From Omnitrophica WOR_2 bacterium RIFOXYA2_FULL_38_17 (GTDB lineage Bacteria > Omnitrophota > Gorgyraeia > Zapsychrales > Zapsychraceae): a stretch of DNA of 64,000 bases. The first letter of the stretch is position 1, and the number at the start of each line of letters is the position of its first letter. The stretch covers positions 220-64,219 of the forward strand of contig MHHG01000012.1 of NCBI GenBank assembly GCA_001805965.1, given 5' to 3'. Made by a program: the position numbers and the translations under genes. Shown in pieces: positions 13,102 through 57,460 of this stretch. Below the pieces are notes generated by a model. That model saw nothing but the letters and a program-made list of their open reading frames with translations, was not told the origin of the DNA and searched no databases.

Positions 13102-13126
13102 TTTTATACCCTTTGCTTTAAAGCGT

Positions 13127-13831: not shown

Positions 13832-13851
13832 ATTGCAATTCCTTAAATTAA

Positions 13852-20227: not shown

Positions 20228-20229
20228 AA

Positions 20230-34814: not shown

Positions 34815-35732
34815 TTATTTCCCCTTATCCCTATTTATAATCTTATTTATAAATATTGAAGTAAATCCCAGCCCTATTAACGTTGGGAAAATATGCTCTA
34901 CAAAAGAATACAAGATCCCCAAAGCTAATAATCTTCCAGCTGATGCATATTTTTGAAACAGCAAAATAACCAGCCCCTCTCTCATTCCTAGCCCTAAGAA
35001 TGTTAATGGGATACTGCTCAACAATATAATAATTGGCAGATAAAAAAACACTTCAGAAAAAGGTAAATCAACATTAATAGCTTTTGATAAAAAATAAAAA
35101 CATACTAGCTCTAAGAATCCGAACAAAAGGCTGAAGAGAATTATTTTCTTATTCTTAAAAATATTTTCATTCTCAAAGCACTTTAAAAGTCGTTTTTTAA
35201 ATGTCATTATCCATTTATTCTCAGAAAATAATATTTTGAATTTAACAAAGCAAAGGACTAGGGCTGGCTGATCGCCAGGCAAAGAAACCAAAGCTTTAAT
35301 AAAAACAAAAATCAAACATAAAGACATGAAAAATAACATTGTGAAAAGATTCAGCATATATTCTGCAAATATAGAAAAAACCGAACTTTCATGGTCAATT
35401 CCATTGATTTTTTTTAAGTATAATATACGAGATATTTCACCTATTTTAAGAGGGACTGCGCCAATAATTGGGGCACTACCAACTTTTATAAAAAACGCTT
35501 CTTTATGTGGCAAATGGCATCCCATTACTTTAAGAATAAGTTTCCATCTTATTGATGAGATAAAAAAACCATTGAACAACGCTACCAAAAGGACTAAAAA
35601 TATTAATTTTAAATCTGCAGATCCTACCGTAGCGTAAACCTGGCCTAGGGAAGCTTTTTTTAATAAAATAGAAAAGATAATAACCGTTATCGCAACTGAC
35701 ACTATTGTGCGGAAAGGATCTTTATATGACAT
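34815..35732 (-). CDS. Flippase-like domain membrane protein (lysylphosphatidylglycerol-synthase TM region / UPF0104 family)
   Basis: 305 aa with about 8 TM helices. The N-terminus ...ILLKKASLGQVYATVGSADLKLIFLVLLVALFNGFFISSIRWKLIL is typical of this family. Confidence 0.45.
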   Translation of the reverse strand: MSYKDPFRTIVSVAITVIIFSILLKKASLGQVYATVGSADLKLIFLVLLVALFNGFFISSIRWKLILKVMGCHLPHKEAFFIKVGSAPIIGAVPLKIGEISRILYLKKINGIDHESSVFSIFAEYMLNLFTMLFFMSLCLIFVFIKALVSLPGDQPALVLCFVKFKILFSENKWIMTFKKRLLKCFENENIFKNKKIILFSLLFGFLELVCFYFLSKAINVDLPFSEVFFYLPIIILLSSIPLTFLGLGMREGLVILLFQKYASAGRLLALGILYSFVEHIFPTLIGLGFTSIFINKIINRDKGK

Positions 35733-35798
35733 AAGATTATTGTTTTCTTTTAAAACAAATAAACAAACTGCTCATTACAAAAAAGCATCTTATTCGCC

Positions 35799-36746
35799 CT
35801 AAATATTTTTTAACCATATTTTAATGCTCTTGCTTATACTAGAAACATCAAGATTGTATAATTTTTGCAAGTCGTTTCTATCTCCATAGATCTCACAAAA
35901 TTGATCTGGTATCCCTATAACCTTAAATGAAGGCGTTTTTTTCTGTACTGCGATCAATTCAGAGATCGCAGTTCCTATGCCCCCCGTTACAAAATGTTCT
36001 TCCAATGTTACAAGACATTTAGCATCTTTTACAACTCCCCAAAGCCCTTCTTTATTCATAGGCTTGATCCTGAAAAGATCGATTACACCTACCTCAATTG
36101 ATTGGGAAGAAAGCTTTTTTGCCACTTGTAATGCGCTATAAACCATCCTACCAGTTGCAACAATATATAACTGTTTTGACTTGCTTAAAACAGAAAATCC
36201 TCTAGACAGATCAAATTCAGACTCCTCCTCATATACCAAAGGCAATCCTTCTCTATCCAACCTTATATATCTGGGACCAGATTGATTATCATATTGCCTT
36301 GCCAACAGATCTGCCATTAATCCATCAGCTGGGCTATAAATCTCCATATTAGGCAAAGAACGCATCAACGCAATATCTTCTGTTCCATGATGAGTCGCTC
36401 CAAGCGTTGAGTAATCAAGCCCTGCACCAATACCGACAATACTAACTGGCAGGTTCATGCAACAGAGATCAACTCTTATCTGTTCATAGCATCTCATGGT
36501 TGCAAAAGGCACTATCGCATAAACATATACTATCTTGCCGGTTTGAGCTAACCCTGAAGCAATACCTATCATGTTTTGCTCAGCAATGCCAACATTTATA
36601 TATTGATAAGGAATTTTTTCTTTGAATTCATCATGACATATTGCCCCGGTATCAGATGTTATTAGGATTATATTGCGATTTTTCTTTGCTTCCTCATAAA
36701 GAGATTGAAAGAAAGAATCTCTCATGCCGGCAGTCCAGTGGCTCAT
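35799..36746 (-). CDS. Transketolase, C-terminal (pyrimidine-binding plus C-terminal domain) subunit
   Basis: 315 aa. It matches the split-transketolase second subunit (GIAEQNMIGIASGLA, GATHHGTEDIALMRSLPNM). Confidence 0.8.
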   Translation of the reverse strand: MSHWTAGMRDSFFQSLYEEAKKNRNIILITSDTGAICHDEFKEKIPYQYINVGIAEQNMIGIASGLAQTGKIVYVYAIVPFATMRCYEQIRVDLCCMNLPVSIVGIGAGLDYSTLGATHHGTEDIALMRSLPNMEIYSPADGLMADLLARQYDNQSGPRYIRLDREGLPLVYEEESEFDLSRGFSVLSKSKQLYIVATGRMVYSALQVAKKLSSQSIEVGVIDLFRIKPMNKEGLWGVVKDAKCLVTLEEHFVTGGIGTAISELIAVQKKTPSFKVIGIPDQFCEIYGDRNDLQKLYNLDVSSISKSIKIWLKNI

Positions 36747-37618
36747 TGTAAATCCTCACTTTCTTGATTTAATTCCCTTCGTGCAATATCAAGTTGTTCT
36801 CCAATAGGGACTCGATAATGCCATATCGGACTGTTCTCCATAAATGACACCCCTTTCCCTTTTGTAGTTAAAGCAATTATAGCCAAGGGCTTTGATCTTT
36901 TTTGTTTAGCATTTACCCTGAGCACATGCAATAATTCAGCAAAAGAATGTCCCTGTACACTTATAGCATCCCAGCCAAAAGCCTCCCACTTGTTTTGCAG
37001 CGGAGAAACCGATAAATACTGTTCTAATATCCCTGTCGCAGAAAGCCCATTATGGTCAACAATAGCTATCAAATTATTCAATTTATATTGAGCTGCGAAC
37101 ATTGCAGCCTCCCATACTGACCCTTCATGGCACTCGCCATCCCCCATTAATACAACAGTTGAATAGCCTTTTTTATCCAATTTAGCCCCTAGTGCTAAAC
37201 CAGCACCAATAGACAATCCATGTCCTAATGACCCTGTAAAAGCCTCAACTCCAGGTGTCGAATTTTCCGGATGACAGCCTAAACGATTTCCATTCTTAGC
37301 AAAACCATCTAAATCTGATTTAGGGAAAAATCCAAGATCAGCTAAAATAGCATACAAAGCGGGTGCGGCATGTCCCTTGCTTAAAATAAACCTGTCTCTA
37401 TCCGGCCAGTTATGATCTTTTCCGTTAACACGTAGTATCCCCCCATAATAGAGTGAGACAAGAATTTCCATGCAGGAAAAAGAAGGCGCCACATGGCCGG
37501 CACCAGCGTTAACTGCCATTTCTAAGACTTTTTTTCTTAATCTATTAGCTTTTCCCTTTAGACTTTTAATTTCTTCATTCAATATATTTTTATCTTTTAT
37601 TGTTTTTTCTTCCGCCAT
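36743..37618 (-). CDS. Transketolase, N-terminal (ThDP-binding) subunit
   Basis: 291 aa with GHVAPSFSCMEIL, FILSKGHAAPALYA and the GDGECHEGSVWEA ThDP motif. It overlaps the C-terminal subunit gene by 4 nt. Confidence 0.8.
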   Translation of the reverse strand: MAEEKTIKDKNILNEEIKSLKGKANRLRKKVLEMAVNAGAGHVAPSFSCMEILVSLYYGGILRVNGKDHNWPDRDRFILSKGHAAPALYAILADLGFFPKSDLDGFAKNGNRLGCHPENSTPGVEAFTGSLGHGLSIGAGLALGAKLDKKGYSTVVLMGDGECHEGSVWEAAMFAAQYKLNNLIAIVDHNGLSATGILEQYLSVSPLQNKWEAFGWDAISVQGHSFAELLHVLRVNAKQKRSKPLAIIALTTKGKGVSFMENSPIWHYRVPIGEQLDIARRELNQESEDLQ

Positions 37619-37642
37619 AAAACCTCCCCATAAGAACTTAAT

Positions 37643-39037
37643 TTAGTTTGAAGACATGAAAATGGATTTTAATATGCCATTTATATTTTCATTTACGGTT
37701 CTACATGCTACGAAATATTGAATACGATAACTATACGAAACCCCCTTGTTCTTTTCAAAAAATGCTTTATATAAGCGTACTGGACTTAAAAAATAAATTA
37801 ATGCAAAAAAACGATACAACACATAAATTAATAGCTTCTTACTTCCCCAAAAAACATTAGCCTTTCCAAAAAGATTATATTTTGTACTATCATTTCTACC
37901 GGGCCAATCCTGCCAATAATCCGAACCCGGCCTTGGCTCCAAAATACTTACATGCCATAAAGGTGAGGTTTTTATCAGGAAAAAATAAGTGTTCAGGATT
38001 TCCCGTACAGTTTCATCAAAATATCCAATAACACCATGATTATGTATTAATATTCTTCGCTTATTCAGGCTTTCACATAACTTCTCATTATCTTTGACCG
38101 TATAAGGCTTGCGATATGCTTTCAAAAGCCTCGCATTTGCTGATTCAATACAAACATTAACCTTAACACACCTGCTTTCAGAAAGTAGGTCAAAAGTTGA
38201 TTCATCTTTTATAGAAGCCGACCCAATACCCATACCCCAGTCTAACCCGACATCTTCTTCTATAAGCAACTTGCAAAAAGCACGCAAATTATCTTCATTT
38301 AGCGCGACATCGTCATCTTCTAAAAACACGAAATCAAGATCAAGCTTCTTAGCTATTTTAAACTCATCAACAATCCTTCTTGGAGACTTATGCCTATAGC
38401 GATGTCCCCACATCCTGACAGTCGAACAAAAAGCACAGTTATACACACAACCTCTTGATGTTTCCATACTTATATATCTTAATCCTGATTTCTTAAAGTA
38501 CGGCTCCAGATCAAATTCTGAATAATCATTAAATGGCAAAGTATCTAGATCTTCAATAAGTTCCCGGGGCTTATTTTTAATAATTTTGCCATCGCTCAAG
38601 TACATTAATCCTTTAATATCTTGCAAAGATCGCTTGATCAAACAATATTTTACAAACTCTCTAAAAGTAAGTTCCCCCTCTCCGTAAATAATGAAATCAT
38701 ATCCATGGAATAAAATATCTTCGGGCACTAAAGTCGCATGATTCCCCCCCGAAATCACTATTGTATCTGGATATGTTATTTTAATATCATTTGCATACTG
38801 CATGCAATAAGGTGCAGCATTAGTAAAATTACATGTAATTCCTATAATGTCGTATCTTTTAGATAATATTATATCCAGACCTTTTTTATACTGCACATCA
38901 GTCAAATCTATAAGTTCCATTTCACAGCCAAGCTCTTTGCCAATCAGGTAAAGGTTCATTAAACCCATACTGGGAACGTGCTCATAACATGTATCAACCG
39001 TAGGAACAACTAATAATATTTTCATAATTTTTACCAA
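37643..39037 (-). CDS. B12-binding domain radical SAM enzyme (class B, probable methyltransferase or C-C forming)
   Basis: 464 aa with an N-terminal cobalamin-binding Rossmann region (KILLVVPT...DIIGITC) and the radical SAM motif ETSRGCVYNCAFCS. Confidence 0.8.
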   Translation of the reverse strand: MVKIMKILLVVPTVDTCYEHVPSMGLMNLYLIGKELGCEMELIDLTDVQYKKGLDIILSKRYDIIGITCNFTNAAPYCMQYANDIKITYPDTIVISGGNHATLVPEDILFHGYDFIIYGEGELTFREFVKYCLIKRSLQDIKGLMYLSDGKIIKNKPRELIEDLDTLPFNDYSEFDLEPYFKKSGLRYISMETSRGCVYNCAFCSTVRMWGHRYRHKSPRRIVDEFKIAKKLDLDFVFLEDDDVALNEDNLRAFCKLLIEEDVGLDWGMGIGSASIKDESTFDLLSESRCVKVNVCIESANARLLKAYRKPYTVKDNEKLCESLNKRRILIHNHGVIGYFDETVREILNTYFFLIKTSPLWHVSILEPRPGSDYWQDWPGRNDSTKYNLFGKANVFWGSKKLLIYVLYRFFALIYFLSPVRLYKAFFEKNKGVSYSYRIQYFVACRTVNENINGILKSIFMSSN

Positions 39038-39052
39038 ACAATAACTGTCTTT

Positions 39053-40759
39053 TTAAAGCCCCAAGATTTCTTTATAGAGATTAACTTCATTTACATTAGT
39101 GTCCTTGCATAATAAAGCCTTTTCTATATCACTTTTTGCTTTTTGCTTTTTGTCTAAAGAATAATATGTTAATGCCCTGCTTAAATACGGAGAATAATCA
39201 TCCTGATTAAAGTCTACTGACAAATCAAAGTAGGCCAATGCTTCTTCATATTTATGCATTCTACGATAAGCTTCTCCAACATGACAAAGCACACGATACC
39301 AATTTTGACTAAACTTATTATTGGGCAATACGGTACTTCGGCTATAAGGGTCCTGGCTAAGAAGATTCTTCATAGACTTTTCTGAATATTGAATATTCCA
39401 TAAACTAGCAGGATCCATTAAGAAAAGTGTTTCAAAACACAATAAAGAACGTTCAGAAAACCTGTTATTAGCTTGAATTGAATTAATTACAGCATGAAAG
39501 GTGATTCTTTCCCAATTCATATGGTTTTCTGCAATATCTTTAAATGTTGGCAACTTCACATTAAATGCATAGTCTTCTAACTTTTTCTTAACTGTGTTTG
39601 AATCAAAAAGCTTTGAATAAATATCATTATTCTGAAGAATTGTTTTTATAAGCGCCTTATCCATTACCGGAAAATACTCTTTCCAAACATGACAATGGTC
39701 CCTAAACTGCTCCTTGCCTGTCAAACCATTTTGAGCTGACTTAGTAAATATTTCTTCAAGATCAAGCAATCCTGCGCCTTCTTCTTTAGCTATTTTTTTA
39801 ACAATTTCATTTTTTTTAGTATTTGAAGTATCAGCGACTGCCATGAGATTCTTGGCCAAAGAGTAATTATTCTTTGCCTCAACATGATCATTATTCTTTT
39901 CATGTGCCCTACCAAGAAAATAATACCCTAACATATCTCCAGGATGATCATTAATATAACCATTAAAAACATCTATTGCTTCTGCATAATTCCCATCATC
40001 TAAATAAATCTTACCTTGAATGAACTGACTGTCTACCGGTTCCGGGACATCAACCAAACTACCACTAAAATTCAAAGGCAGAGTAGATAAGACAATTGGA
40101 ACATCATTTTTATTTGCATTAGCAACAATACTCTTTATATTCTTTTCATAATTAAGATAGATCAGTTGAAGCTGGTCAATATTCTCTTCATTTATTTTTT
40201 TATTATTAAACATAATGCTTTTCTTAAAATTGCGATAAAAGGAAAATCGTGCAAGGAACTCATTAAAATAATAAGCAGTTAAATTAATACCTTGTTGATT
40301 AAAATACTCATTATTTCCCGAAATAAGGACTACAAGATCCGGATCATATGACATCATTTCTTTTGCAATAATTTCAACCCTATAACTATCGTAACCCGGC
40401 ATTCCGGCATTAATGATCTCCAGTTTTTTGCCTGGTATTAGGTCAACAGGTAGAGTTATATGCCCCGCCCAATCATAAGTAAATGAACCTCCAATGAAAA
40501 TGATCCTTATTGTATCGTCAGGCTTTTTAACAGAAAACTCTTCATAATCCGAGAAATATTGCCTTTGTGATGAATATACAAAATCCCCACCTTTAAACTT
40601 CTTTTTGTAAAGCTTCTTATAAATATCTCCATATGCATACTTAAAAGAAACATCGTCTCCACCCATGGGAAGCACAAAAGAAGATCGTTTTCCTGATAAA
40701 AAATCAATTGATAGCAGGATAAAGATCGCTGTTAAGATAAATATTATTTGTTTTTTCAT
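39053..40759 (-). CDS. Secreted or periplasmic SGNH-hydrolase domain protein with C-terminal TPR repeats (paralog 1)
   Basis: 568 aa with N-terminal signal anchor MKKQIIFILTAIFILLSIDFL. SGNH blocks are FIGGSFT (Ser), NAGMPGYDS (Gly), ISGNNEY (Asn) and RDHCHVW (DxxH), followed by TPR-like helical repeats. Confidence 0.6.
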   Translation of the reverse strand: MKKQIIFILTAIFILLSIDFLSGKRSSFVLPMGGDDVSFKYAYGDIYKKLYKKKFKGGDFVYSSQRQYFSDYEEFSVKKPDDTIRIIFIGGSFTYDWAGHITLPVDLIPGKKLEIINAGMPGYDSYRVEIIAKEMMSYDPDLVVLISGNNEYFNQQGINLTAYYFNEFLARFSFYRNFKKSIMFNNKKINEENIDQLQLIYLNYEKNIKSIVANANKNDVPIVLSTLPLNFSGSLVDVPEPVDSQFIQGKIYLDDGNYAEAIDVFNGYINDHPGDMLGYYFLGRAHEKNNDHVEAKNNYSLAKNLMAVADTSNTKKNEIVKKIAKEEGAGLLDLEEIFTKSAQNGLTGKEQFRDHCHVWKEYFPVMDKALIKTILQNNDIYSKLFDSNTVKKKLEDYAFNVKLPTFKDIAENHMNWERITFHAVINSIQANNRFSERSLLCFETLFLMDPASLWNIQYSEKSMKNLLSQDPYSRSTVLPNNKFSQNWYRVLCHVGEAYRRMHKYEEALAYFDLSVDFNQDDYSPYLSRALTYYSLDKKQKAKSDIEKALLCKDTNVNEVNLYKEILGL

Positions 40760-40786
40760 TTAAAATTATATTATGAGCAGGTTGTT

Positions 40787-42508
40787 TCAATTAGCAAGAT
40801 TGATTGTTTTAAGTATAATATCTTTGTAATATTGGACTTCTGATAAGTTTTCATTCGCATTTTCTTTAGCTTTTTCAATATTCTTTAAAACTTCATTATG
40901 ATTACCTTGGGAACAATTAAGCAAGGCCTTTCCTAAATACGGCAGATAGCTATCTTTATCCAGTTCAATTGCTTTATCATAATACACATCGGCTTCTTTA
41001 TATAAGTTCATTCTTCGATATGTTTCAGCTATATGATTAATCACTTTCGGCCATTTGCTGTCGAATGAATTTTTAAAAATTATATTATTAACATATTTGT
41101 TTTCAAGCAAATCCCTTTCAATAGAATCTTTTGAGAATTGAATATTCCACAAATATTCCGGATTCATTAAATAAAGAGTCTTAAAGTTATAAAGCGCCCT
41201 TTCAGAATAACCACTAACGGCTTCAATAGCATTAAATGCAGCTTGTTCAATCCTATTACTTATATAATCTTCATTTTTTCCCAATTCCTTTAATGAAGGT
41301 GCCTGAAACGGTTCATTCGAATACGGGATCATTTTATCATTCTTATCCGAACCAAATATTCTTAAATAATCTGAAGTATTGTTCGTAAACTCTTTGATTA
41401 GTGCCTTATCAAACAATTGATAATACTCATCCCAGATGTGACAATGGTCATTAAACTGCTCTCGTCCTGTTATGTCATTTTTAGCTGTTCTCATAACTAT
41501 TGACTCCAAATCAATAAATCCAGTGTCTTCTTCTCTGCTTATTTTACGAATTACTTTATTTCTGCTTGGAGTAACATAATCATCATCGGAAAACTCAACC
41601 GACTTTAAATAGTTCTCTTTGGCTTCTTTATAATCTTTAAGTTCTTCATAAACCTGACCCAAATAATAATACCCATAAATATTTTCAGGATTTCTGCTAT
41701 TAAAATATCTTAGATATTTTATAGCATCAGAATATTTCTTGTTTTCAAACGATAGCTTACCCAGCAAAAAATAATTATCAGATGGTAGCATTAGTGACGA
41801 CATACCATGCAAATTCATTGGCAGTGTACAAAGAATCAAAGGGACTCTTTTACTCCTTGCGCTTCGCACAATAGAACGTAGATTCTTCTCAAAGTAATCA
41901 AGCGTCTTTTCCCTGTCCTTATGATATTTATTTGCATATCTTGATATCAAATGATTAATACTGTTTTTTAAATAATAATAAAGATGATACCTTAGAAAAT
42001 ATTTATTCAGTTTATAAGCAGTTAAATTGAAACCTTGCTGATTGTAATATTCATTATTCCCAGTTAAAACCACAATTGCATCAGGCTCATAGGACAAAAG
42101 CTCTTGCGCAATTAACTTAACTCTATAACTATCATATCCTGGCATTCCTACATTTATAATTTCAAGCTTTTTCCCGATAACAATGTCCTCATCTATTGAT
42201 ATTGCATCTTCCCAACCATGAGCTACTGAACCACCAATAATGAATATTCTTATTACATTTGGGTCTTTTTTAACTGTAAATTCTTGATATTGCTCATAAT
42301 ATTGTCTTTGAGAAACATACATTTCTTTCTCGCCGTTTAAAACTTTTTTGTACAAATTTTTATAGATATCTTCATATTCATATTTAAATGAAGGTTGTTC
42401 TTCTTTAATAACTTGAGCAGGACCATATTTTATTTGCTTAAAGGATTCAATAGCTATCAGTGGAAATAAAAATAAAATCAGCAGGAATAATATAAATATA
42501 TATTTCAT
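40787..42508 (-). CDS. Secreted or periplasmic SGNH-hydrolase domain protein with C-terminal TPR repeats (paralog 2)
   Basis: 573 aa with the same architecture as the upstream paralog: FIIGGSVAHGW, NVGMPGYDSYRV, LTGNNEYYNQ, NDHCHIWDEY, then TPRs. The two share roughly 40-50% identity by eye. Confidence 0.6.
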   Translation of the reverse strand: MKYIFILFLLILFLFPLIAIESFKQIKYGPAQVIKEEQPSFKYEYEDIYKNLYKKVLNGEKEMYVSQRQYYEQYQEFTVKKDPNVIRIFIIGGSVAHGWEDAISIDEDIVIGKKLEIINVGMPGYDSYRVKLIAQELLSYEPDAIVVLTGNNEYYNQQGFNLTAYKLNKYFLRYHLYYYLKNSINHLISRYANKYHKDREKTLDYFEKNLRSIVRSARSKRVPLILCTLPMNLHGMSSLMLPSDNYFLLGKLSFENKKYSDAIKYLRYFNSRNPENIYGYYYLGQVYEELKDYKEAKENYLKSVEFSDDDYVTPSRNKVIRKISREEDTGFIDLESIVMRTAKNDITGREQFNDHCHIWDEYYQLFDKALIKEFTNNTSDYLRIFGSDKNDKMIPYSNEPFQAPSLKELGKNEDYISNRIEQAAFNAIEAVSGYSERALYNFKTLYLMNPEYLWNIQFSKDSIERDLLENKYVNNIIFKNSFDSKWPKVINHIAETYRRMNLYKEADVYYDKAIELDKDSYLPYLGKALLNCSQGNHNEVLKNIEKAKENANENLSEVQYYKDIILKTINLAN

Positions 42509-42527
42509 AATTATTAGCGGTCTTAAA

Positions 42528-43940
42528 CTATTTATTTACAAGATATCTTGCAACAAAACGCTGGGTTAAAATTAACCAGCTTGTAGATAATATTTTATCC
42601 AAAGCATTAACTGCCTGGTCCAGCTCTTCTTTCTTTATGATATATGGCGGCGAAAAAACAATAAGATTACGCCTTGTAAATCCCAGATAAGACAAAATAT
42701 TATGCGCATGGAACAATTCAGACAAGACTATCGCACCGGTTAATGCAAGAAGTGATGATAGCTTATCGGGAAAGAACCTTTTTATTATCGGTTCAATTTG
42801 GTTTGCTGCAGGCTCAAGCTCTACGCCCCATAAAAGGCCCCTACCGCGCACATCAAGAATTCTTTTAGGATGTTTTTCTTTGAGCTCTTTTAAACGCATT
42901 TCAAGATATGCACCCAATTCGCGCGCTCTTTCAACCAAATTTTCATCTTTTATAATATTAACCGCCTCAATTGCAGTTGCACATTCCTCACCCATTCCAC
43001 TAAATGTAGATGAATGTATCATTGAATCGCCTGATTTACCATATGCCTGCAAAAATACCGGCTTTCTTGCTGTAATCCCAGCGATAGATGCTTTTCCCCC
43101 GCCGAAAGACTTAGAATAACAAACAATATCTGGCACAATATTGTCTGCTTCAAATGCAAACCAATAACCTGTTCTGCCAAAACCGATATAGATCTCGTCC
43201 ATAATCAGAAGAACATCATATTTTGTACATAATTCACGAACTTTCTTCAGATAACCTTCAGGGGGAAATATTATTCTAGTACCATGAATTGCTTCTAAAA
43301 CAAATGCACATATATCAGGTTTATTATTTTCTATGGATTTAGAGCGAAATAATTCTTCCAAAGCATCACTATCACCATAAGGGACCTGATAGCATTTATC
43401 TAATAATTGAAAATTATGACGGTGCTCTTCCATACTTGATACCGACATTGACCCATATGATTTGCCATGAAAAGAACGATCCGTATAAGCCAATCCCAAC
43501 CTGTTTTTCCCACCATATTTCTGGGCCAATTTCAATGCCGATTCAATAGCCTCTGCGCCACTACCGCAAAAGTAGGAATACTGCAGATCGCCAGGAAGCA
43601 ATGATGCCATGTTAGCAGCTAGAGCAGCCATATATGGGGAAACAAGGGCTTTACAGACCTCCATTCTTTTATTTTCAGCAAATTTCCGCCTTACTTCAAG
43701 AATTCTTGGATGATTATGGCCTAATCCAAGAACACAGCTACCGCCTGTCATATCAAGAATTTTACGCCCATCATTAAGAGTTATATAAACACCTTCAGCA
43801 GAAACGCTACAGGGGGTATCAAATCTTAATATTTTAAGCAATTTTATCATGCCCGGATTAACATAATCTTCCATTAAGGTTATTTTTTCTTTTGATGTCA
43901 TATTTTCAACATCTGAGACTTTAAACCAAGTTCTATTCAT
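42528..43940 (-). CDS. Class III (PLP-dependent) aminotransferase
   Basis: 470 aa with GGSCVLGLGHNHP, LIMDEIYIGFGRTGYWFAFE and the Schiff-base lysine region YSKSFGGG. Confidence 0.8.
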   Translation of the reverse strand: MNRTWFKVSDVENMTSKEKITLMEDYVNPGMIKLLKILRFDTPCSVSAEGVYITLNDGRKILDMTGGSCVLGLGHNHPRILEVRRKFAENKRMEVCKALVSPYMAALAANMASLLPGDLQYSYFCGSGAEAIESALKLAQKYGGKNRLGLAYTDRSFHGKSYGSMSVSSMEEHRHNFQLLDKCYQVPYGDSDALEELFRSKSIENNKPDICAFVLEAIHGTRIIFPPEGYLKKVRELCTKYDVLLIMDEIYIGFGRTGYWFAFEADNIVPDIVCYSKSFGGGKASIAGITARKPVFLQAYGKSGDSMIHSSTFSGMGEECATAIEAVNIIKDENLVERARELGAYLEMRLKELKEKHPKRILDVRGRGLLWGVELEPAANQIEPIIKRFFPDKLSSLLALTGAIVLSELFHAHNILSYLGFTRRNLIVFSPPYIIKKEELDQAVNALDKILSTSWLILTQRFVARYLVNK

Positions 43941-44983
43941 ACATCCCCCTTAATAGCTTTTTTAATATAGTTCAGCCATACTTCTGGATCTAAATTAAAA
44001 AATAGATTTCTATCAATATATGCAGGGATATAGCACCCCAAACATCCATTTCTTTTTAATTTTAAAATCGAATTCCTCAAGCCATCTTTATGCACATTTA
44101 ATTCCGGCCTTCCCCAAAAATTACAGCAAGGATAAACGCTTCCATCACTATCGATAAAAACAACAAAATCCCCATGAATGCACTTTGTCTTTTTTAAAAC
44201 TTGTGAATTATCGTCTGCATAAGCCATTCTCTTTTTATAGGAAAAAGGCCAACTTGCAGCAATCTCATAACTCTTTTCTGTAAATTGAATTGGATATCCC
44301 CTTTTTTTACATATTAAAATATGTTGAAAAAGAGCTCTCATATGATCATTACTTATCTCATGAGGCTTTGCATCGATTGATTTGACGCTTGAAATAAATT
44401 CGAATGAAGGCGAGAAATTAACTGATAGCTTATTATCCATTGCAAAATTACTCAGCCACTCAATATCATTAACTGTAGTTTCTTGTGTTAGAACAGAGCT
44501 GAGCCTTACTGCTAGCCCCAAAGATCGGGCCATTTTGATCCCTTCAACAACTTTATCAAATGTCCCTTCCCCGCAATTTCTTTCATGCGCTTCTTTTGGC
44601 CCGTCTAAACTTATACAAATTTTATCTAAAAGTTTGATTGTTTCAAAATTTTGGTTTATCAGGATACCATTAGTGACAAGGTCACATATCATCCCACATT
44701 TCCTGGCTTCTTCGATAATAGTTCTCAAGTCATCTCTAAGCAAGGGCTCGCCTCCTTGCAGCTGTAAGATCTTTGTGCCCATCTTCCGGAGAGTTTTGAT
44801 CATTAGAAGAATTTCTTCCGTTGAAAAATCCTTCCAATTATTTCTTTGGTCATGCTGGCCATAGCAATACCAACACTTCAGATTACACTTATTTGTAACA
44901 CATAAAATAACAATCAATGGCACTTTCTTTGATTTTATTTTTGCAAAGACCAAATTTAAAACAAATTTTAGGTATCTAAGCAT
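43937..44983 (-). CDS. Radical SAM enzyme with SPASM/twitch-like C-terminal Cys cluster
   Basis: 348 aa with CVTNKCNLKCWYC (Cx3Cx2C) and a C-terminal CIHGD...PCCNFW...GCLGC motif. Confidence 0.75.
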   Translation of the reverse strand: MLRYLKFVLNLVFAKIKSKKVPLIVILCVTNKCNLKCWYCYGQHDQRNNWKDFSTEEILLMIKTLRKMGTKILQLQGGEPLLRDDLRTIIEEARKCGMICDLVTNGILINQNFETIKLLDKICISLDGPKEAHERNCGEGTFDKVVEGIKMARSLGLAVRLSSVLTQETTVNDIEWLSNFAMDNKLSVNFSPSFEFISSVKSIDAKPHEISNDHMRALFQHILICKKRGYPIQFTEKSYEIAASWPFSYKKRMAYADDNSQVLKKTKCIHGDFVVFIDSDGSVYPCCNFWGRPELNVHKDGLRNSILKLKRNGCLGCYIPAYIDRNLFFNLDPEVWLNYIKKAIKGDV

Positions 44984-45016
44984 AATTTAACGCGTTAATT
45001 ACTTTTTAAAAATCTA

Positions 45017-45709
45017 TTATTTTTTATATATATAAGATATATCTTTACACATCCTTAAAATGGAAGTTAGGCTCAGAGCTTTTGATTTTCCAGAATTTCT
45101 ACCTCTTAATGGTGCTGAAAGCTCAACTACCTCACATCCGATCCTGACTGAATGTATTATGCTTTCTGCACTAAATGCAAAACCTTTAGCAGCTAAAGAA
45201 ACCGACTTTAACACTTTAACTGGAAATACAGTTAAGCCATTGTAGTATTTAAGATCCATTCCAAAACTTTTGTTTAATATCCATGTATATAAACGAGAGA
45301 TCATTTTGCGGAATCCAGGCCTTCCGTCATGCTCTAGATGGTGAGAAGTTACGACACGATCATTCTTCAAATATGGCACACAGTCTGCCAGCTCTTTTGC
45401 ATAATTCTCATGATCTGACGGGAACCATGTAAAATATTCATATTCAGCAACAGCTAGTGCATCCCTGTAGCTAGTTCCTATGCCTTGGTTCTTAATGTGG
45501 CGAATAACTTTTATTTGCTTGTTATTTTCAGACAGTTTGGTAGCTATCCTTAAAGTAGAATCAACACTGGCATCATCAACAATAATGATCTCAAACATGG
45601 CCACGGCTTCAGTCAATACATCCATCAGGTCATTTACTGCTTCTTCAATATTTTCCTCTTCATTAAAAGCTGGGACGCAAACTGAAAGATTTATGGCTCT
45701 TTTGCTCAT
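45017..45709 (-). CDS. GT2-family glycosyltransferase (polyprenyl-phosphate sugar transferase, DPM1/ArnC-like)
   Basis: 230 aa with the N-terminal motif LSVCVPAFNEEENI...IIIVDDASVDST and a later DxD-type region. Confidence 0.75.
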   Translation of the reverse strand: MSKRAINLSVCVPAFNEEENIEEAVNDLMDVLTEAVAMFEIIIVDDASVDSTLRIATKLSENNKQIKVIRHIKNQGIGTSYRDALAVAEYEYFTWFPSDHENYAKELADCVPYLKNDRVVTSHHLEHDGRPGFRKMISRLYTWILNKSFGMDLKYYNGLTVFPVKVLKSVSLAAKGFAFSAESIIHSVRIGCEVVELSAPLRGRNSGKSKALSLTSILRMCKDISYIYKK

Positions 45710-45725
45710 TTAAATTAATGCCTCT

Positions 45726-46790
45726 CTAAATAAAATTAGTATGGCTGTCAGGATTCTTCAATTCCCACAAGTAGCGGTTGATCTCATCCATTCGGCATGA
45801 TTTTCTGCAAACTTTAAGTCCAAATTCTTTTGATATTTTATTAACTACATTTTTTCTCTTTTCTCCAGCCCAAATCTCTTCAAACCCCTCCTGATAAATA
45901 TTCCCATAAGCATACTGCTCATTTCCTACGAACGTGTTACATGGATATATGTTTCCTGAGGCAGCAACATGTGTAATAAATGACAATCCATAGCAACGAT
46001 CATAAGTCTTTTCTTCTTTGATATTATTTATTGCATGCGCTCTTAAAATCACATCAAATCTATTTTCTGAATACTGCTTCAAATCGTTTTCCAAGATAGC
46101 CATCTCAGCAGAGCTAATATCATTTTCCATTTTATTCTCGCTTAAAGGATGTTGAGAATATGGTTTGATAGCCAAATAATCAACCCCTATATTTTTTAAA
46201 ATTTTGACAAGCGGGACTAATTCTTTAATATTATTTTGCAAAAGCAAAAATTGAACACCAATTGTGCATGCATAATTTTTATCTTTCTTTAATTTGACAG
46301 CATATTCAAGATTCTTCATGACTTTCTCAAGATCCCAAGGAACAGTTCCATGAATTTCCGAATATGCTTCTTTAGTACCTGCGTTTAAACTAACCCTTAT
46401 CCATGTTAAATTTGGCAACAGGTCGTTAGCTGCTACCTCATCGAGCAAAACTCCATTTGTAGATAGTGCTGCGTCAATTTTATTCTGCTTGGTAAATGCA
46501 ATAATTTCATTAGCTTTATCATGCAAAAGAGGCTCCCCTTCACCAGAATAAAGCACAGATTTAATTCCTTTTTTTGAAAGCTCAACCAAAAGTTTCTTTG
46601 CAATGTTTTCATCTAGAATATCAGTATTCTTATCCAAGTAATCAAAAGCACAAAAAACACATTTATGATTACACCCGCCATTAAGCCCTATCTCAACATA
46701 AACTGGATAAACATCCTCCCCATTAAGCCATTGATTAACTCTAGAAACATGATACATAAGCTTGTGACTGTCGATTTTATATTTATCCAT
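45726..46790 (-). CDS. Radical SAM enzyme (paralog family A), SPASM-like C-terminus
   Basis: 354 aa with VEIGLNGGCNHKCVFCAF. The C-terminus has Cys residues and ends ...NFI, like its neighbour. Confidence 0.75.
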   Translation of the reverse strand: MDKYKIDSHKLMYHVSRVNQWLNGEDVYPVYVEIGLNGGCNHKCVFCAFDYLDKNTDILDENIAKKLLVELSKKGIKSVLYSGEGEPLLHDKANEIIAFTKQNKIDAALSTNGVLLDEVAANDLLPNLTWIRVSLNAGTKEAYSEIHGTVPWDLEKVMKNLEYAVKLKKDKNYACTIGVQFLLLQNNIKELVPLVKILKNIGVDYLAIKPYSQHPLSENKMENDISSAEMAILENDLKQYSENRFDVILRAHAINNIKEEKTYDRCYGLSFITHVAASGNIYPCNTFVGNEQYAYGNIYQEGFEEIWAGEKRKNVVNKISKEFGLKVCRKSCRMDEINRYLWELKNPDSHTNFI

Positions 46791-46812
46791 ATTTTTAATC
46801 CCAACAGATCAT

Positions 46813-47916
46813 TTAAATAAAATTAATATGTTCCGGAGGAATATTATCCGGCGCATCAAAAGACATTTTATTGTTCTTTAAGTCCCACAGGAACTCATTT
46901 GTCATATGCTGTAAGCATAAAGTACCACAAACCTTTCTAGCATCAAAATCTTTTGAAGCAATTAGGCCCATAACCTCCCAATAGCGGTCGCTCTTCCATA
47001 TCTCCTTAAATGATTTATCAACGATATTTCCTATATGATAATCTTTATATCTTGTGTGAAAAAGACCCCCGCAAGGTGCAACCAAACCAGAACCTGAAAG
47101 CTGCAAAATAAATGGAGGTCCGTAGCACTGGGCATACTTTCTTTTTCCCTCACTTAGCAATTTTGTCCATTTAACTTTTACTAAATAGTCTTGAGCTGAA
47201 TAAGATTCAGCTTCTTTCAGAACATCTTTCAATCCAAGATATTTTGAATAGTCAACACCCAAACTACCAAGGACATCATCACAACAATGCTTAATTACTG
47301 TATAATCGACACCCACTTCTTTACCATAAACTGCAAGAGGAACTATCATTTCAAAGAATTGAGGCATTAAAACCATCTGCAGCCCTATGGTGACTTTCAA
47401 TTTCTGTCTTTTTTTTATCTCAACACACTTCTTTATAGTATTATCAACCTTAAAGAAAGCACTCTCCTTGCAACCCATAATTTTCGAGTATGATATTGGA
47501 TCTGCCGCAGAGATATTGAACCTTAAGTAAGTTAAACAAGGTAGGACCTCTTCCAATCTTTCGTCTTTAAGCAAATATCCGTTTGTGCCTAAGGCGATGT
47601 CCAAACCATTACCCTTGCCTCTTATAATTGCATCATACAAATGTTCAGAGCATGTACTTTCCCCGTCACTGACAAAGCTAACTGCTTTAACTCCAATTTC
47701 AGCAGCATCATCAAGAAATCTAGATATAACATCCTTTGACATTAACTTCTCGTCATTTGCCTGCAATTGGCCATAACAATAAATACATCTATAAGTACAT
47801 CTTCTTGTCAATGCACAATCAACCGTAATAGGAGCGATCCTCTCTCCTCGTAACCACGCATCAACCCTGTCTTTATGCCAATTAAGCTTATGGCCATCTA
47901 ATATCAATTCGCCCAT
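46813..47916 (-). CDS. Radical SAM enzyme (paralog family A), SPASM-like C-terminus
   Basis: 367 aa with VDCALTRRCTYRCIYCYGQ. It has the same N-terminal lead-in (HKLNWHKDRVDAWLRGE versus HKLMYHVSRVNQWLNGE) and C-terminal ...INFI as its neighbour. Confidence 0.75.
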   Translation of the reverse strand: MGELILDGHKLNWHKDRVDAWLRGERIAPITVDCALTRRCTYRCIYCYGQLQANDEKLMSKDVISRFLDDAAEIGVKAVSFVSDGESTCSEHLYDAIIRGKGNGLDIALGTNGYLLKDERLEEVLPCLTYLRFNISAADPISYSKIMGCKESAFFKVDNTIKKCVEIKKRQKLKVTIGLQMVLMPQFFEMIVPLAVYGKEVGVDYTVIKHCCDDVLGSLGVDYSKYLGLKDVLKEAESYSAQDYLVKVKWTKLLSEGKRKYAQCYGPPFILQLSGSGLVAPCGGLFHTRYKDYHIGNIVDKSFKEIWKSDRYWEVMGLIASKDFDARKVCGTLCLQHMTNEFLWDLKNNKMSFDAPDNIPPEHINFI

Positions 47917-48007
47917 AATATTCCCTATAAAGAGCCTTTCCCATAAAATTCTTCTATTTGCTTATCTATTCGCTACTTCAATTAACAAAATACAGAAAGT
48001 CTCCCTT

Positions 48008-48883
48008 TCAATTTGCTTTTACAATATCTTTTATATCAACAGAGCAATGCCCAAATTTTTGGAACCTATTTGTCTTAATTTTCAGATCGCAAGGATTACA
48101 ATCTCCATATTGATCGCAATCCCTGAAAATATCCTCAATATCAAACTCAGGCTCCAAAAGATTGCCTATATGAGGAAAACCTTTGTACAGATCATGATGG
48201 CATCTGTACACCTTACAATCAGGGCCTATTATCAACTCAGTTGTTCTACATTTGCACTTTAACCTTGTCGTACTACCAACAGATCCTTCAAATTTATACA
48301 AGCCCTTTAACTCGCCTTCATGTTGACCTAAAAAATCCTTAACACGAAAATCTATTCCAAATTGCTCACACTTTTCCTTTGTTTCCAAAACATGATCTTT
48401 TGTTAGCGGATGAAGAACACCATATCCTCCAACAGAAAAACCAGCTTTCTGCAAATAAAGTATTTTTTTAATAAAAATATCTGCGCTCATTTGGGTTGAA
48501 TGATAACTGGCTCTTATGCTTGAATAAGGCGCCTCTCTTTTTAATCTGGACGGATTAACTTCTTTTGCAAATTTTTCAACATCAAATGATAAGTTGGTTA
48601 AAATATCAATATTCAGCTGAGTCTCAATATTGTTAATTATTGAAAAGAAATCGGGATGCAAGCTGGGCTCTCCACCTTGAAGAGTAATAGGCAAGTCTCT
48701 TCGTGAAACCAGGCGATTTAAAGCATGGGTCCAATCCTGCCCTGAGATCTGAGGCCATTTATTATCTCGCTTTTCTAACCAATTAATACAATAATCACAG
48801 TTAAAATTACAGTTTAAAGTCAAAAAACAAGCTATATAATTAAATCTTCCCGGAAGATATATTTTCTTTAAGCTCATGTTCAA
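48008..48883 (-). CDS. Radical SAM enzyme with Cys-rich C-terminal domain
   Basis: 291 aa with CFLTLNCNFNCDYCINW. The C-terminus (CKCRT...CHHD...CDQYGDCNPCD...CS) suggests an auxiliary cluster. Confidence 0.65.
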   Translation of the reverse strand: MNMSLKKIYLPGRFNYIACFLTLNCNFNCDYCINWLEKRDNKWPQISGQDWTHALNRLVSRRDLPITLQGGEPSLHPDFFSIINNIETQLNIDILTNLSFDVEKFAKEVNPSRLKREAPYSSIRASYHSTQMSADIFIKKILYLQKAGFSVGGYGVLHPLTKDHVLETKEKCEQFGIDFRVKDFLGQHEGELKGLYKFEGSVGSTTRLKCKCRTTELIIGPDCKVYRCHHDLYKGFPHIGNLLEPEFDIEDIFRDCDQYGDCNPCDLKIKTNRFQKFGHCSVDIKDIVKAN

Positions 48884-49817
48884 TCATTTCCTTAACTTTA
48901 GATGGATATATGTATTCCATACAATATTTAGTTTTATTACAAGTTGTGTTAAAGCAAGAAATGCACTCATATGGCGAATCAGGTAAAATGTATGTCCCAC
49001 ATTCATAAAAACTGAATTCAACCGGGGACGTCGGTCCAAACAAGCCAAGAACCCTCTTTTTTAATGCCAGTCCAATATGTAGCCCTAAAGTATCCGCGGT
49101 TACTATTAACCCGCATGAATTGATCCAATCAATATATTCATTAAGGTTATCAAATCCTTGCTGCCATGAAATTGAATATTGTTCCTTAAGCAATAACTCC
49201 AAATCTTTCCAATAATTATTAGGCCAGGATTTGTTTGTCCAGCGCTTTCCAGTTGTCCAATTAAAGCCGATGTCATAATTCTTCTCAGTCTTTGGTTTAT
49301 ATCCTAATATATATCCTTCACCTTTCCATTCTTTCCCAATAGCCTCTGCTAATATTTTTTGCCAACAATCCCTGTTCTTCTTCCTGTTTTCTACATGTTC
49401 ACTCATAAAAAGCAGTTGAGTCGATTTAAATAAAGTTCCATTTTTATTCGAGCAATTATCTTTAAACCCATAAAATTCGTCTGTTTTTAAAGAACGGCAA
49501 AACGATAGAATTTCATCAGTTTTTTCAAAATTTACAACAATATCAAAATTTTCGTTAAAAAGATCATTCAGATCACATTCTTGGTAAGATAAAATCCTAT
49601 CTATAAATTCATTCCCTTCTAACAAAGGAACAGCTTTCTCATCAACCAACCAGCTAACATAATAATCTTTGAAATAGTGAAGTATAAAAGTCGTCCTAAG
49701 AACATCTCCTAAGTTCACAGTTCTTCCTATGCTGTTTTCTAAGGTCTCTGAATACCCTAATTTTATTATTAATAATTTTCGCATCTTTAAAAAACAATGA
49801 TTAACACATAATTTCAC
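48840..49817 (-). CDS. GT9-family glycosyltransferase (heptosyltransferase-like)
   Basis: 325 aa with N-terminal KLLIIKLGYSETLENSIGRTVNLGDVL and the C-terminal GT9 motif GLIVTADTLGLHIGLALKKRVLGLFGPTSP. Confidence 0.65.
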   Translation of the reverse strand: MKLCVNHCFLKMRKLLIIKLGYSETLENSIGRTVNLGDVLRTTFILHYFKDYYVSWLVDEKAVPLLEGNEFIDRILSYQECDLNDLFNENFDIVVNFEKTDEILSFCRSLKTDEFYGFKDNCSNKNGTLFKSTQLLFMSEHVENRKKNRDCWQKILAEAIGKEWKGEGYILGYKPKTEKNYDIGFNWTTGKRWTNKSWPNNYWKDLELLLKEQYSISWQQGFDNLNEYIDWINSCGLIVTADTLGLHIGLALKKRVLGLFGPTSPVEFSFYECGTYILPDSPYECISCFNTTCNKTKYCMEYIYPSKVKEMIEHELKENISSGKI

Positions 49818-54853: not shown

Positions 54854-54933
54854 TTTTTAATCCTTGTCATTTTGATCCCAGCTAATTCTTTTTTTGATAA
54901 CTTTGTTCATACATTTTGCATCTTTTAACAATT

Positions 54934-56184
54934 TTACCGAATAAGCCCTTCTTTATCTTTTGTATATATAACAGTAGCCTCTCTGTCAGGCTGTATGGTT
55001 AAAGGCTTGTCTCGGAAAATAAGCACTCTTATCTTTGTTCCCCTGGACTCAATTGAGTCACACAGCTCTTGTCTTCTTTTGTCCCAATCGCCTAAAAGAA
55101 TTATCATTGAAGACAACTGCTTTATATATGGCGATAAATGATCCTGAAGAAGTTCAAAATTTACATTTTTGGTTTCTTCAATCCCGGCTAACAGTTCAAG
55201 CAAATTTTCCAAATGGGCCAATGCCCTTCCCATCTGAAAATGATGAAGAATATCGCCTGCAGCAAATAGATCAATAATATAATCCTTTTTTGCAATCGCA
55301 TCAGCAATGCCCGCAGCTACTGAAATGCGAGTTTCAAATATTTCAGCATCCTTCTGCCATAAAGATGATTGTTCAGTATCAAGCAAAATACCGATACGAA
55401 TAAAATATTCATCAACATATTCTTTTACAATTAATTTTCCTGTTCTCGCATAAGAAGACCAGTGGATATCTTTTAGCCTGTCGCCCTTCCGATAATCACG
55501 GGTATTTAAAAATTCATTTGAATCACCGACATTAGAACTAATGGCAATCCCGCCAGGCTGATAAACCCGTTTAAAAGGCACATAAAAATCTGTCTGGGTT
55601 ATGAACTTAGGATAAACGATCAATTTGTCCTTTTTGGGGATCTTAACTGGGAACCTCAAGATTTCTGAAGGAAAGCTGCTTCCCACTAATAAATAAGCCA
55701 AATCATAGATGTCCCGATACTTGCATCTTATAACCAGTTTAATTGTGGCAATTTCGCCGGGCTCTAACCAATCAACAAAACCTTCATAAGAAGCATGGTC
55801 CGGAGCATCATAAATTCCATAAGGCAGAACACCTTCTGAAATTTTAACATTACGGACAGGGTATCTCCCTTCATTCTTAACAGCAACATCATAAACAATG
55901 AAATCACCCGCACTACAAGGTAACGGCATAAAACGATCAACAGATATTTTAGGCCTATTAAAATATGCAAAGATAAACGCTGTAATAAAAATGGCGATCA
56001 AAATACTAGGAAGAATATATGCATCAATATGTAAGCCCGGAGAAGAAACCATGCCTCCGATAAAAATTATCCCGCAGAGTATCCTTCCAATGTCAGTAAA
56101 CCACATTCTCGAATAGATCACAGAACGTTTAACAAACGTGTGGTCTTCTGCCGACATAAAAAATGAATATTTTCTCTTTGGCAT
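54934..56184 (-). CDS. DUF58-domain protein (MoxR-associated, vWA-like)
   Basis: 416 aa with the DUF58 signature EFLNTRDYRKGDRLKDIHWSSYARTGKLIVKEYVDE. It overlaps the moxR stop by 1 nt. Confidence 0.75.
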   Translation of the reverse strand: MPKRKYSFFMSAEDHTFVKRSVIYSRMWFTDIGRILCGIIFIGGMVSSPGLHIDAYILPSILIAIFITAFIFAYFNRPKISVDRFMPLPCSAGDFIVYDVAVKNEGRYPVRNVKISEGVLPYGIYDAPDHASYEGFVDWLEPGEIATIKLVIRCKYRDIYDLAYLLVGSSFPSEILRFPVKIPKKDKLIVYPKFITQTDFYVPFKRVYQPGGIAISSNVGDSNEFLNTRDYRKGDRLKDIHWSSYARTGKLIVKEYVDEYFIRIGILLDTEQSSLWQKDAEIFETRISVAAGIADAIAKKDYIIDLFAAGDILHHFQMGRALAHLENLLELLAGIEETKNVNFELLQDHLSPYIKQLSSMIILLGDWDKRRQELCDSIESRGTKIRVLIFRDKPLTIQPDREATVIYTKDKEGLIR

Positions 56185-57152: not shown

Positions 57153-57460
57153 TTATTGACATAATTTAATTTCTGCATCAGAGCACAATGCAATACATTT
57201 TATCACAAAAAGTAAGAAAATAAAGCTGACTCTGGACTTAATCAAACATATTGGAAAATATTATTAAACCCAAAGCACTAAACCAGCACTATATTAAAGT
57301 CTATTATTTATGAAACTTTCTAAATTATAATCTGCTAAAAACTATTGATTTAAATAAGCTTATGTGTTTGAATATAAACAATTAACAACACCGCTCATTG
57401 AATTTGATTAATAATATATTGTTAAATTATGTAAAACAAACAATCTTCCCGGAGGATAAC

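Follow-up and report, generated by a model that had tools for sequence, protein, structure and literature searches.

Two adjacent open reading frames (ORFs) on a contig of Omnitrophica WOR_2 bacterium RIFOXYA2_FULL_38_17 (MHHG01000012.1, assembly GCA_001805965.1) encode paralogous proteins in which a predicted SGNH hydrolase fold is combined with tetratricopeptide repeats (TPRs). The whole stretch of DNA analysed, hereafter the window, spans 64,000 nucleotides (contig positions 220 to 64,219, forward strand), and coordinates refer to it unless a related contig is named. ORF A (39053..40759; 568 amino acids) and ORF B (40787..42508; 573 amino acids) lie on the minus strand, are both intact and are separated by 27 nt. 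Their products share 41% identity over 536 amino acids with few gaps (E 2e-141) and are therefore paralogs. Each consists of an N-terminal anchor, an SGNH core with an embedded pair of TPRs, and a C-terminal helical/TPR domain. An original prediction, made from the sequence alone, had described a tandem pair of proteins of about 570 amino acids with this kind of shared architecture, and both the paralogy and the common order of structural elements in the predicted models bear this out.

Models of the two paralogs were obtained with AlphaFold2 (AF2), with a mean predicted local distance difference test (pLDDT) of 84 and a predicted template modelling score (pTM) of 0.85 for ORF A, and values of 82 and 0.83 for ORF B. 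Both models have the same order of elements, namely an N-terminal helix, a disordered linker, a beta hairpin and five strands alternating with helices (strands 83-90, 112-118, 142-146, 222-225 and 330-332 in ORF A). The core is divided into two parts. In ORF A, the first (residues 76-238; 40046..40534, minus strand) holds strands 1-4 and blocks I-III, and the second (residues 308-376; 39632..39838, minus strand) holds strand 5 and block V.

All four SGNH blocks that had been proposed from the sequence are present in both proteins. Block I, which follows strand 1, is G90-G91-S92 in ORF A and G92-G93-S94 in ORF B. Block II reads NAGMPGY or NVGMPGY and forms an AGMPG loop after strand 2, around G119/G122 in ORF A. 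Block III of ORF A (G148-N-N150-E151) follows strand 3, and block V (D354-H-C-H357) lies in the loop that precedes the helix starting at residue 360. The corresponding ORF A codons are at 40484-40486 (Ser92, the predicted catalytic serine), 40310-40312 (Asn150), 39698-39700 (Asp354) and 39689-39691 (His357), all on the minus strand. In ORF B, the catalytic span occupies 41438..42229 on the same strand, with Ser94 at 42227-42229, Asn152 at 42053-42055, Asp354 at 41447-41449 and His357 at 41438-41440. In an alignment of 160 family sequences, the key residues are conserved at 96-99% (G90 98%, S92 97%, N150 98%, E151 96%, D/E354 99%, H357 99%), and the exact glycine of block II is variable (G119, 67%). 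The same alignment reveals additional family-specific invariants at K79, R85, E114, P140-D141, N230 and N317. The catalytic residues are retained in every long paralog that was compared.

The relationship to known SGNH proteins emerges when the core is considered without the TPR insertion and the C-terminal domain. Specifically, the full-length protein matches Pfam Lipase_GDSL_2 (PF13472) over residues 88-228 with 22.7 bits, below the gathering score of 32.9; the excised core of ORF A scores 35.0 bits, above it. Cores were likewise excised from 22 diverse family members, and all 22 match PF13472 at E<=0.01. A sequence search of the PDB with the whole protein returned TPR proteins only, and SGNH structures surfaced after the insertion and the C-terminal domain had been removed. 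The profile built from the 22 excised cores matches 4iyj (2e-13), 7ddy, an acetyl xylan esterase (8e-13), 4ppy (5.5e-12), Axe2 3w7v (2.6e-10) and 1yzf (9e-8). In these alignments, the family serine falls on the GDS/GNS nucleophile of 7ddy and 4iyj, the block III asparagine on GTND/GVND, and the D-x-x-H motif on DGVH/DRVH of 4iyj and 7ddy, and the AGMPG loop pairs with GAGIGG of 7ddy. A Foldseek search with the full ORF A model also recovered 3p94 (template modelling score TMt 0.69), 4ppy (0.68) and 7ddy (0.59) among generic TPR matches. By these sequence comparisons, ORF A and ORF B are SGNH-fold proteins with intact catalytic residues, and a Ser-His-Asp triad is predicted from the sequence and from the placement of these residues on the modelled secondary structure.

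The TPR matches (Pfam TPR_2, 48.6/50.1 bits against a gathering score of 27; TPR_1, 41.6/44.1 bits against 27.8) fall at two distinct sites, one around residues 243-306 and the other around 488-555, and AF2 places helix pairs at both. In ORF A, the first site corresponds to two TPR motifs, or four helices, at residues 239-307 (39839..40045, minus strand; Pfam 243-306, AF2 helices 244-304), which are inserted after strand 4 of the SGNH fold and thus lie between strands 4 and 5, ahead of block V. The embedded pair of ORF B spans about residues 241-308 (41585-41788, minus strand). The segment at 239-307 is a true insertion, because the alignments to PDB structures run unbroken across the excision point. 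The second site is within the C-terminal domain (ORF A residues 377-568; 39056..39631, minus strand). The region from residue 360 to the end is all-helical in the AF2 model, and TPR models match it only over the final ~70 residues. The original prediction had placed an SGNH domain first and a TPR array after it. C-terminal repeats are indeed found at about 488-555, but one TPR pair (about 239-307) sits inside the SGNH fold. The high pTM values (0.85 and 0.83) suggest that each protein may form one rigid body rather than carry a free repeat array. Given this model and the presence of one TPR pair within the catalytic fold, the proposal that the TPRs act as scaffolds is doubtful as it was stated.

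An N-terminal signal anchor had also been proposed, and this feature is found throughout the family. AF2 models a hydrophobic helix at residues 2-22 of ORF A (40694..40756, minus strand) and residues 2-28 of ORF B. Among 156 family members, 132 have exactly one strongly hydrophobic 19-mer, located at the N terminus with a median start at residue 9. The flanks of this segment carry a family-wide net charge of +2.45 on the N side versus -0.24 on the C side, and N-terminal tails of at least 20 residues (49 members) are strongly basic, with +0.17 net charge per residue. On the basis of the AF2 helix and these positive-inside statistics, the ORF A segment is predicted to be a single uncleaved signal anchor with its N terminus in the cytoplasm. 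Because a single N-terminal hydrophobic segment, the charge asymmetry of its flanks and the basic tails recur across the family, the enzyme domain is expected outside the cytoplasm. In other words, the catalytic domains of ORF A and ORF B are likely extracytoplasmic, in agreement with the periplasmic location originally suggested. A lipoprotein identity for the family was also considered and was rejected, as a scan for lipobox-like motifs found them in only 3 of the 156 members.

ORF A and ORF B reside in a tightly packed, same-strand operon of 13 genes (34815..49817, minus strand), consistent with the earlier description of a cluster of radical S-adenosylmethionine (radical-SAM) and glycosyltransferase (GT) genes. 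The gene order is GT9, radical-SAM, two radical-SAM-SPASM genes, GT2, radical-SAM, class-III aminotransferase, ORF B, ORF A, B12-binding radical-SAM, a split transketolase (two genes) and a flippase-like LPG_synthase_TM protein. There are therefore five radical-SAM genes, of which one is B12-binding and two carry SPASM domains. Most junctions are gaps of 15-33 nt or overlaps, with 66 and 91 nt at two of them, and the gaps around the tandem pair, which is flanked by the aminotransferase and B12-radical-SAM genes, are 15-27 nt. The flippase-like protein matches TIGR00374 with 57 bits (cutoff 43.2). Other neighbours yield weak NCBIfam matches below the cutoffs, including radical-SAM, aminotransferase and GT2 models, and those of the B12-radical-SAM protein are to HpnJ, HpnR and rSAM_ladder_B12, which are hopanoid/lipid-biosynthesis families. 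Readings of the operon as a hopanoid pathway (HpnH/J/O-like), as a pathway for ribosomally synthesized and post-translationally modified peptides (RiPPs) or as an aminoglycoside-like pathway were considered and not adopted, as the matches fall below the cutoffs. Moreover, since gaps within the operon are only 15-91 nt, there is no room inside it for a RiPP precursor peptide gene. A scan for expression signals did not rise above background, with 76 promoter-like sites versus 74.3 in shuffled sequence and 8 terminator-like sites versus 10.6. The scan therefore gives no firm indication of where the operon begins or ends, although its best minus-strand promoter-like site (49861-49833) does lie just upstream of the GT9 start.

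Gene order in this operon is preserved in two related contigs of Omnitrophota type, L001, where the ortholog is 60% identical, and L002. The first has one long copy and a short paralog of 468 amino acids; the second has a tandem pair and a short paralog of 415 amino acids. On contig L006, B-like (54% identity) and A-like (70%) copies occur in tandem and are followed by a B12-radical-SAM gene, the likeness to the operon being limited to these genes. L052/L053 contain at least two long copies, a short paralog of 466 amino acids and further TPR proteins, surrounded by the same radical-SAM, aminotransferase and B12-radical-SAM genes. A more distant member on L055 has as neighbours GT2, a PMT_2 GT-C, a sulfatase-like gene, a separate GDSL lipase, radical-SAM-SPASM, B12-radical-SAM and DUF2079 genes. 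Synteny is only partial in L052 and L055. Across L001, L002, L006 and L052, the place of ORF A and ORF B in the operon is held at 40-70% protein identity, and clusters on related contigs carry from one to several SGNH-TPR copies.

The shorter third paralog (415-468 amino acids) is located between the GT2 and radical-SAM genes of the related operons (L001:6106-7512, L002:1686-2933, L052:15656-17056). Its anchor is followed by an SGNH core whose TPR insertion is larger, and the C-terminal domain is absent. Among these clusters, the number of SGNH-TPR genes ranges from two to about three or more. No such gene is present in the window, where the gap from GT2 to radical-SAM is just 33 nt.

In a neighbour-joining tree of the paralogs, made without bootstrap, ORF A clusters with the L001 copy and with the second of the L006 copies, and ORF B clusters with the first of them. 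The pairs of L002 and L052 each form a group of their own. Because both A-type and B-type orthologs are present in L006, the A/B duplication is old. The tree also points to recurrent duplication or gene conversion in the Omnitrophota clade.

The wider family is very large. An exhaustive HMMER search over 1.84 billion cluster representatives (50% identity) yielded 3,408 representatives at E<=1e-30, and the top 150 matches all lie below 1e-72, nearly all of them full-length proteins of 500-700 amino acids. At E<=1e-10, there are 12,556 matches, which probably include generic TPR proteins. A reading of the family as rare, which came from a word-indexed search with 11 matches, was overturned by this result. 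Among species-representative genomes, the relatives span no fewer than ten groups of phylum level: Omnitrophota, Planctomycetia, Elusimicrobia, Ignavibacteria, Bacteroidota, Chlorobi, Zixibacteria, Acidobacteria, Chloroflexota and metagenome-assembled genomes of Gammaproteobacteria. This abundance, together with the precedent of TviD (PMC8760489), contradicts the original prediction that fusions of SGNH domains to TPRs are uncommon. In their sources, the relatives are named 'tetratricopeptide repeat protein' or 'hypothetical protein', and short homologs carry the automatic Joint Genome Institute (JGI) label 'lysophospholipase L1-like esterase'. No protein of this architecture has been characterised, and it is covered by neither a Pfam family nor a curated name.

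Members of a distant branch, with ~20-25% identity to ORF A and ORF B, are found in other surroundings. When all ORFs in 55 loci holding family members were clustered, the recurrent neighbours of this branch were a PpiD-like peptidyl-prolyl isomerase (PPIase; 23 loci) and a NodU/CmcH-type carbamoyltransferase (18 loci). Often the carbamoyltransferase gene directly precedes the family member in the same orientation, and it recurs across phyla in loci from Elusimicrobia (L009), Terriglobales (L038), Zixibacteria (L039/L043/L047), Ignavibacteria (L022/L044) and Chitinophaga (L034). Genes for small membrane proteins of the SxtJ-like and DUF5989 types stand alongside in several of these loci. The resulting gene order is the same as that of sxtI-sxtJ-sxtK-sxtL in saxitoxin clusters, and the carbamoyltransferase/SxtJ/DUF5989/SGNH combination may be a general carbamoylation/decarbamoylation cassette. 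Profile-profile comparison of the window-family core with the distant group gives a probability of 100%, with an E-value that is inflated, as the alignments share related sequences. No profile-search match carried the name SxtL. The context of a homolog of SxtL size (P0216, 434 amino acids) proved to be O-antigen ABC-transporter/GT4/sulfatase rather than carbamoyltransferase. The window contains no gene for a carbamoyltransferase, SxtJ or a PpiD-like protein.

Examples of the cassette among loci L003-L049 are L034:2928-9255, L009:125-3786, L043:5279-10825 and L014:1-6058. A separate synteny block surrounds distant family members in L003, L014, L020, L024 and other Ignavibacteria/Bacteroidota loci. 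It comprises genes for a PpiD-like PPIase, the SGNH-TPR protein, a CBM20 protein with a type IX secretion system (T9SS) tail, PorV, a 1,187-amino-acid ORF without a Pfam match and a TonB-dependent outer-membrane protein.

Elsewhere in the window, about 18 kb from ORF A and ORF B and unlinked to their operon, a gene for a membrane-bound O-acyltransferase (MBOAT) is present at 20230-21690 (minus strand). It overlaps a downstream ORF of 363 amino acids (19223-20314, minus strand), whose product combines a hydrophobic segment at the N terminus with a GFGDSS motif and matches Lipase_GDSL_2 weakly (E 0.008). By sequence, the pair at 19223-21690 looks like a canonical relay of an MBOAT and an SGNH-like protein of the AlgI/AlgJ or DltB/DltD type. 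A block at 1909-15663 (minus strand) encodes a NiFe hydrogenase large subunit, HypF, HypD, a HypE-like protein, a NuoF-like flavoprotein and a poly-ferredoxin, and is ordinary context for an anaerobe. On the plus strand, a 1,108-amino-acid ORF without a Pfam match at E<=0.1 (57398-60724) adjoins a MoxR AAA/DUF58/transglutaminase-like gene set (52820-57152).

The explanation that we favour, albeit tentatively, is that ORF A and ORF B are anchored, periplasm-facing Ser-His-Asp SGNH enzymes that act on the exported product of the operon. What we infer here is the topology, how the TPRs pack on the core, which substrate is used, in which direction the reaction runs, and the link between the enzymes and the operon product. 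In this scheme, the two would be single-pass inner-membrane proteins with the N terminus inside and the C terminus outside, and the extracytoplasmic domain would be a Ser-His-Asp esterase or transesterase. The embedded TPR pair and the helical/TPR domain probably pack on this core, creating an extended surface to which a large substrate or a partner protein could bind. The cytoplasmic enzymes of the operon (five radical-SAM proteins, the aminotransferase, the split transketolase, GT2 and GT9) probably make a glycoconjugate or glycolipid of an unusual kind, which the flippase-like protein would then expose to the periplasm. On the outer side of the inner membrane, ORF A and ORF B would most likely make or break an ester bond in this product or its lipid carrier, and the old A/B duplication could have provided two specificities or a working pair. 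The originally proposed 'O-acyl editing' lacks direct support. Because no acyl-donor machinery is linked to the pair, hydrolysis, or transfer from membrane lipids, is mildly favoured.

Several observations weigh against this explanation. None of the 13 operon genes encodes an MBOAT, an acyltransferase-3 (AT3) protein or a cytoplasmic O-acyltransferase/acetyltransferase. Among ten operon neighbours searched against NCBIfam, nothing except the flippase-like domain exceeds a curated cutoff, and hence the product or pathway of the operon is not assignable. The contexts of distant family members are diverse (carbamoyltransferase/SxtJ, PpiD, O-antigen ABC transporter), so membership in the family does not fix a substrate. 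The anchor of ORF B, taken alone, has one K/R on the N side versus three on the C side, which makes its charge bias not decisive. Finally, the public (NCBI) gene call for ORF A, P0001, is a 'hypothetical protein' of 537 amino acids that begins only at Met32 and so lacks the anchor. Conservation of the hydrophobic N terminus in homologs favours the longer start, and comparison with these sequences suggests that Met32 is probably a mis-called start. The part of ORF A left out of this annotation, which includes the conserved anchor, is at 40666-40759.

Two alternatives retain the membrane-anchored, outward-facing enzyme and change its chemistry. In one, which we consider rather unlikely, the paralogs are periplasmic O-acyltransferases, or writers, comparable to AlgX/AlgJ, PatB and the SGNH domains of OatA/OafA, and the acyl donor comes from phospholipids or from the distant MBOAT. 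The SGNH acyltransferase GCAT, for example, uses membrane phospholipids, and the anchor would hold the window enzymes beside such lipid donors. SGNH-fold enzymes also include proven O-acetyltransferases, and TviD, which combines an SGNH fold with TPRs, is a transferase (PMC8760489). The window does contain an MBOAT (20230-21690), but this protein has its own adjacent SGNH-like partner and no link to the operon, and no MBOAT homolog was detected near family members in 51 loci with tblastn at E<1e-8, a search of limited sensitivity. The paralogs retain hydrolase-type oxyanion residues (the block III asparagine and the glycine-rich loop of block II), a feature that favours neither direction. Unlikely to a similar degree is that the pair are lipid-directed enzymes of the lysophospholipase or lipid transacylase type that remodel, instead of a polysaccharide, a membrane lipid or glycolipid produced by the operon and moved outward by the MprF-type flippase-like domain. 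A role of this kind would fit the membrane anchors, the LPG_synthase_TM/flippase-like gene at the end of the operon, the matches of the B12-radical-SAM protein to HpnJ, HpnR and rSAM_ladder_B12, and the label 'lysophospholipase L1-like esterase' on short homologs. However, the B12-radical-SAM matches score far under the curated cutoffs and the JGI labels are automatic, whereas GT9 and GT2 indicate glycan chemistry and, judged by sequence, the nearest relatives of solved structure are carbohydrate esterases (7ddy, 3w7v).

The remaining alternatives alter the location or the role of the pair. If the proteins faced the cytoplasm, as TviD does, they could use acyl-CoA before export with their TPRs docked on the glycosyltransferases of the operon. 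The TPR domain of TviD binds TviE and mediates membrane association (PMC8760489), the Met32 start would give ORF A without its anchor, and the charge bias of ORF B alone is ambiguous. Against this stand the conservation of the hydrophobic N terminus in homologs, the family charge statistics and basic tails that place the enzyme outside, and the Cys-His site of TviD, which lacks blocks II and III and differs from the window proteins in these respects. We regard this arrangement as very improbable. The synteny might instead be merely positional and the pair a housekeeping envelope esterase, for instance for O-acyl groups of peptidoglycan or lipopolysaccharide. Distant relatives near genes for a PpiD-like PPIase (23 loci), PorV and TonB-type outer-membrane proteins are in keeping with this idea, but ORF A and ORF B are set within the operon by gaps of only 15-27 nt to the aminotransferase and B12-radical-SAM genes, and their position is kept at 40-70% identity in L001, L002, L006 and L052. 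This reading is as improbable as a cytoplasmic location. By comparison, anchored periplasmic SGNH enzymes acting on the operon product account best for these observations.

The fold and the chemistry expected of these proteins belong to a well-known superfamily, and SGNH domains combined with TPRs are common and not without precedent. The new elements are the very large uncharacterised architectural subfamily, its conserved radical-SAM-rich operon in Omnitrophota, and the linkage of its distant branch to carbamoyltransferase and SxtJ genes. If a single member were characterised, a large set of envelope-associated genes could be annotated with it, amounting to thousands of clusters in many phyla. 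In Omnitrophota, SGNH-TPR genes mark the conserved operon, and the relatives linked to carbamoyltransferase and SxtJ could help to explain the sxtJ/K/L genes found in saxitoxin clusters. A broader and improbable idea is that the family forms the extracytoplasmic end of envelope relays that are free of MBOAT and AT3 proteins, including the final step in Omnitrophota and an O-carbamoyl/decarbamoyl system in the distant branch. If so, the Omnitrophota paralogs would perform the last periplasmic transfer or trimming on a radical-SAM-tailored glycoconjugate delivered by the GT2 and flippase-like pair, a task for which one would ordinarily expect a GT-C enzyme or an acyl relay. The carbamoyltransferase-SxtJ-SxtK-SGNH cassette would then be a widespread trans-membrane system, of which saxitoxin sxtIJKL is one recruited copy.

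Among known systems, the closest solved relatives are small SGNH esterases and acylhydrolases (7ddy AlAXEase, 3w7v Axe2, 4iyj, 4ppy, 3p94 and 1yzf; E 2e-13 to 9e-8, TMt 0.59-0.69). In contrast to the window proteins, these are soluble, single-domain proteins of ~200 amino acids without an anchor, a TPR insertion or a C-terminal domain, and their block I is GDS rather than G-[G/E]-S. Membrane-tethered, extracytoplasmic SGNH-type domains that act on envelope polymers are found in AT3-SGNH proteins (OatA/OafA) and in the MBOAT plus SGNH relays PatA/PatB and DltB/DltD. DltD, for instance, has a single N-terminal anchor. These systems differ from ORF A and ORF B, which have neither a fused nor an adjacent AT3 or MBOAT protein. 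In the alginate system, likewise, the acetyl group is supplied by an MBOAT.

A second group of systems joins modifying enzymes to TPR modules. AlgX/AlgJ with AlgK and PelA with PelB are synthase-dependent exopolysaccharide systems in which a periplasmic modifying enzyme, of SGNH type or otherwise, cooperates with TPR modules, and the modules organise the modification and export of the polymer (PMC8760489; see also PMC9734138). There, the TPRs are on a separate protein and the system includes an outer-membrane porin, and neither is encoded in the window operon. SxtL is a GDSL-lipase proposed to decarbamoylate, acting in a cluster in which the functions of SxtJ and SxtK are unknown (PMC2679770, PMC2684587). 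Its likeness to the distant branch is one of gene order alone, and the window operon is without a carbamoyltransferase or SxtJ. The nearest parallel in domain content is TviD, the Vi-antigen O-acetyltransferase of Salmonella Typhi, which also fuses an SGNH fold to TPRs and whose gene belongs to a locus for glycan biosynthesis. Through its TPR domain, TviD binds the glycosyltransferase TviE and associates with the membrane (PMC8760489). The enzyme works on the cytoplasmic side, with an atypical Cys-His site and no blocks II and III, and its nine TPRs are all C-terminal (PMC8760489). The window proteins depart from this type, with its cytoplasmic location, Cys-His site and C-terminal TPR domain. 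Compared by description with TviD, which has no N-terminal anchor, they are anchored, retain the canonical Ser, Gly, Asn and His residues, and carry a TPR pair inside the fold itself.

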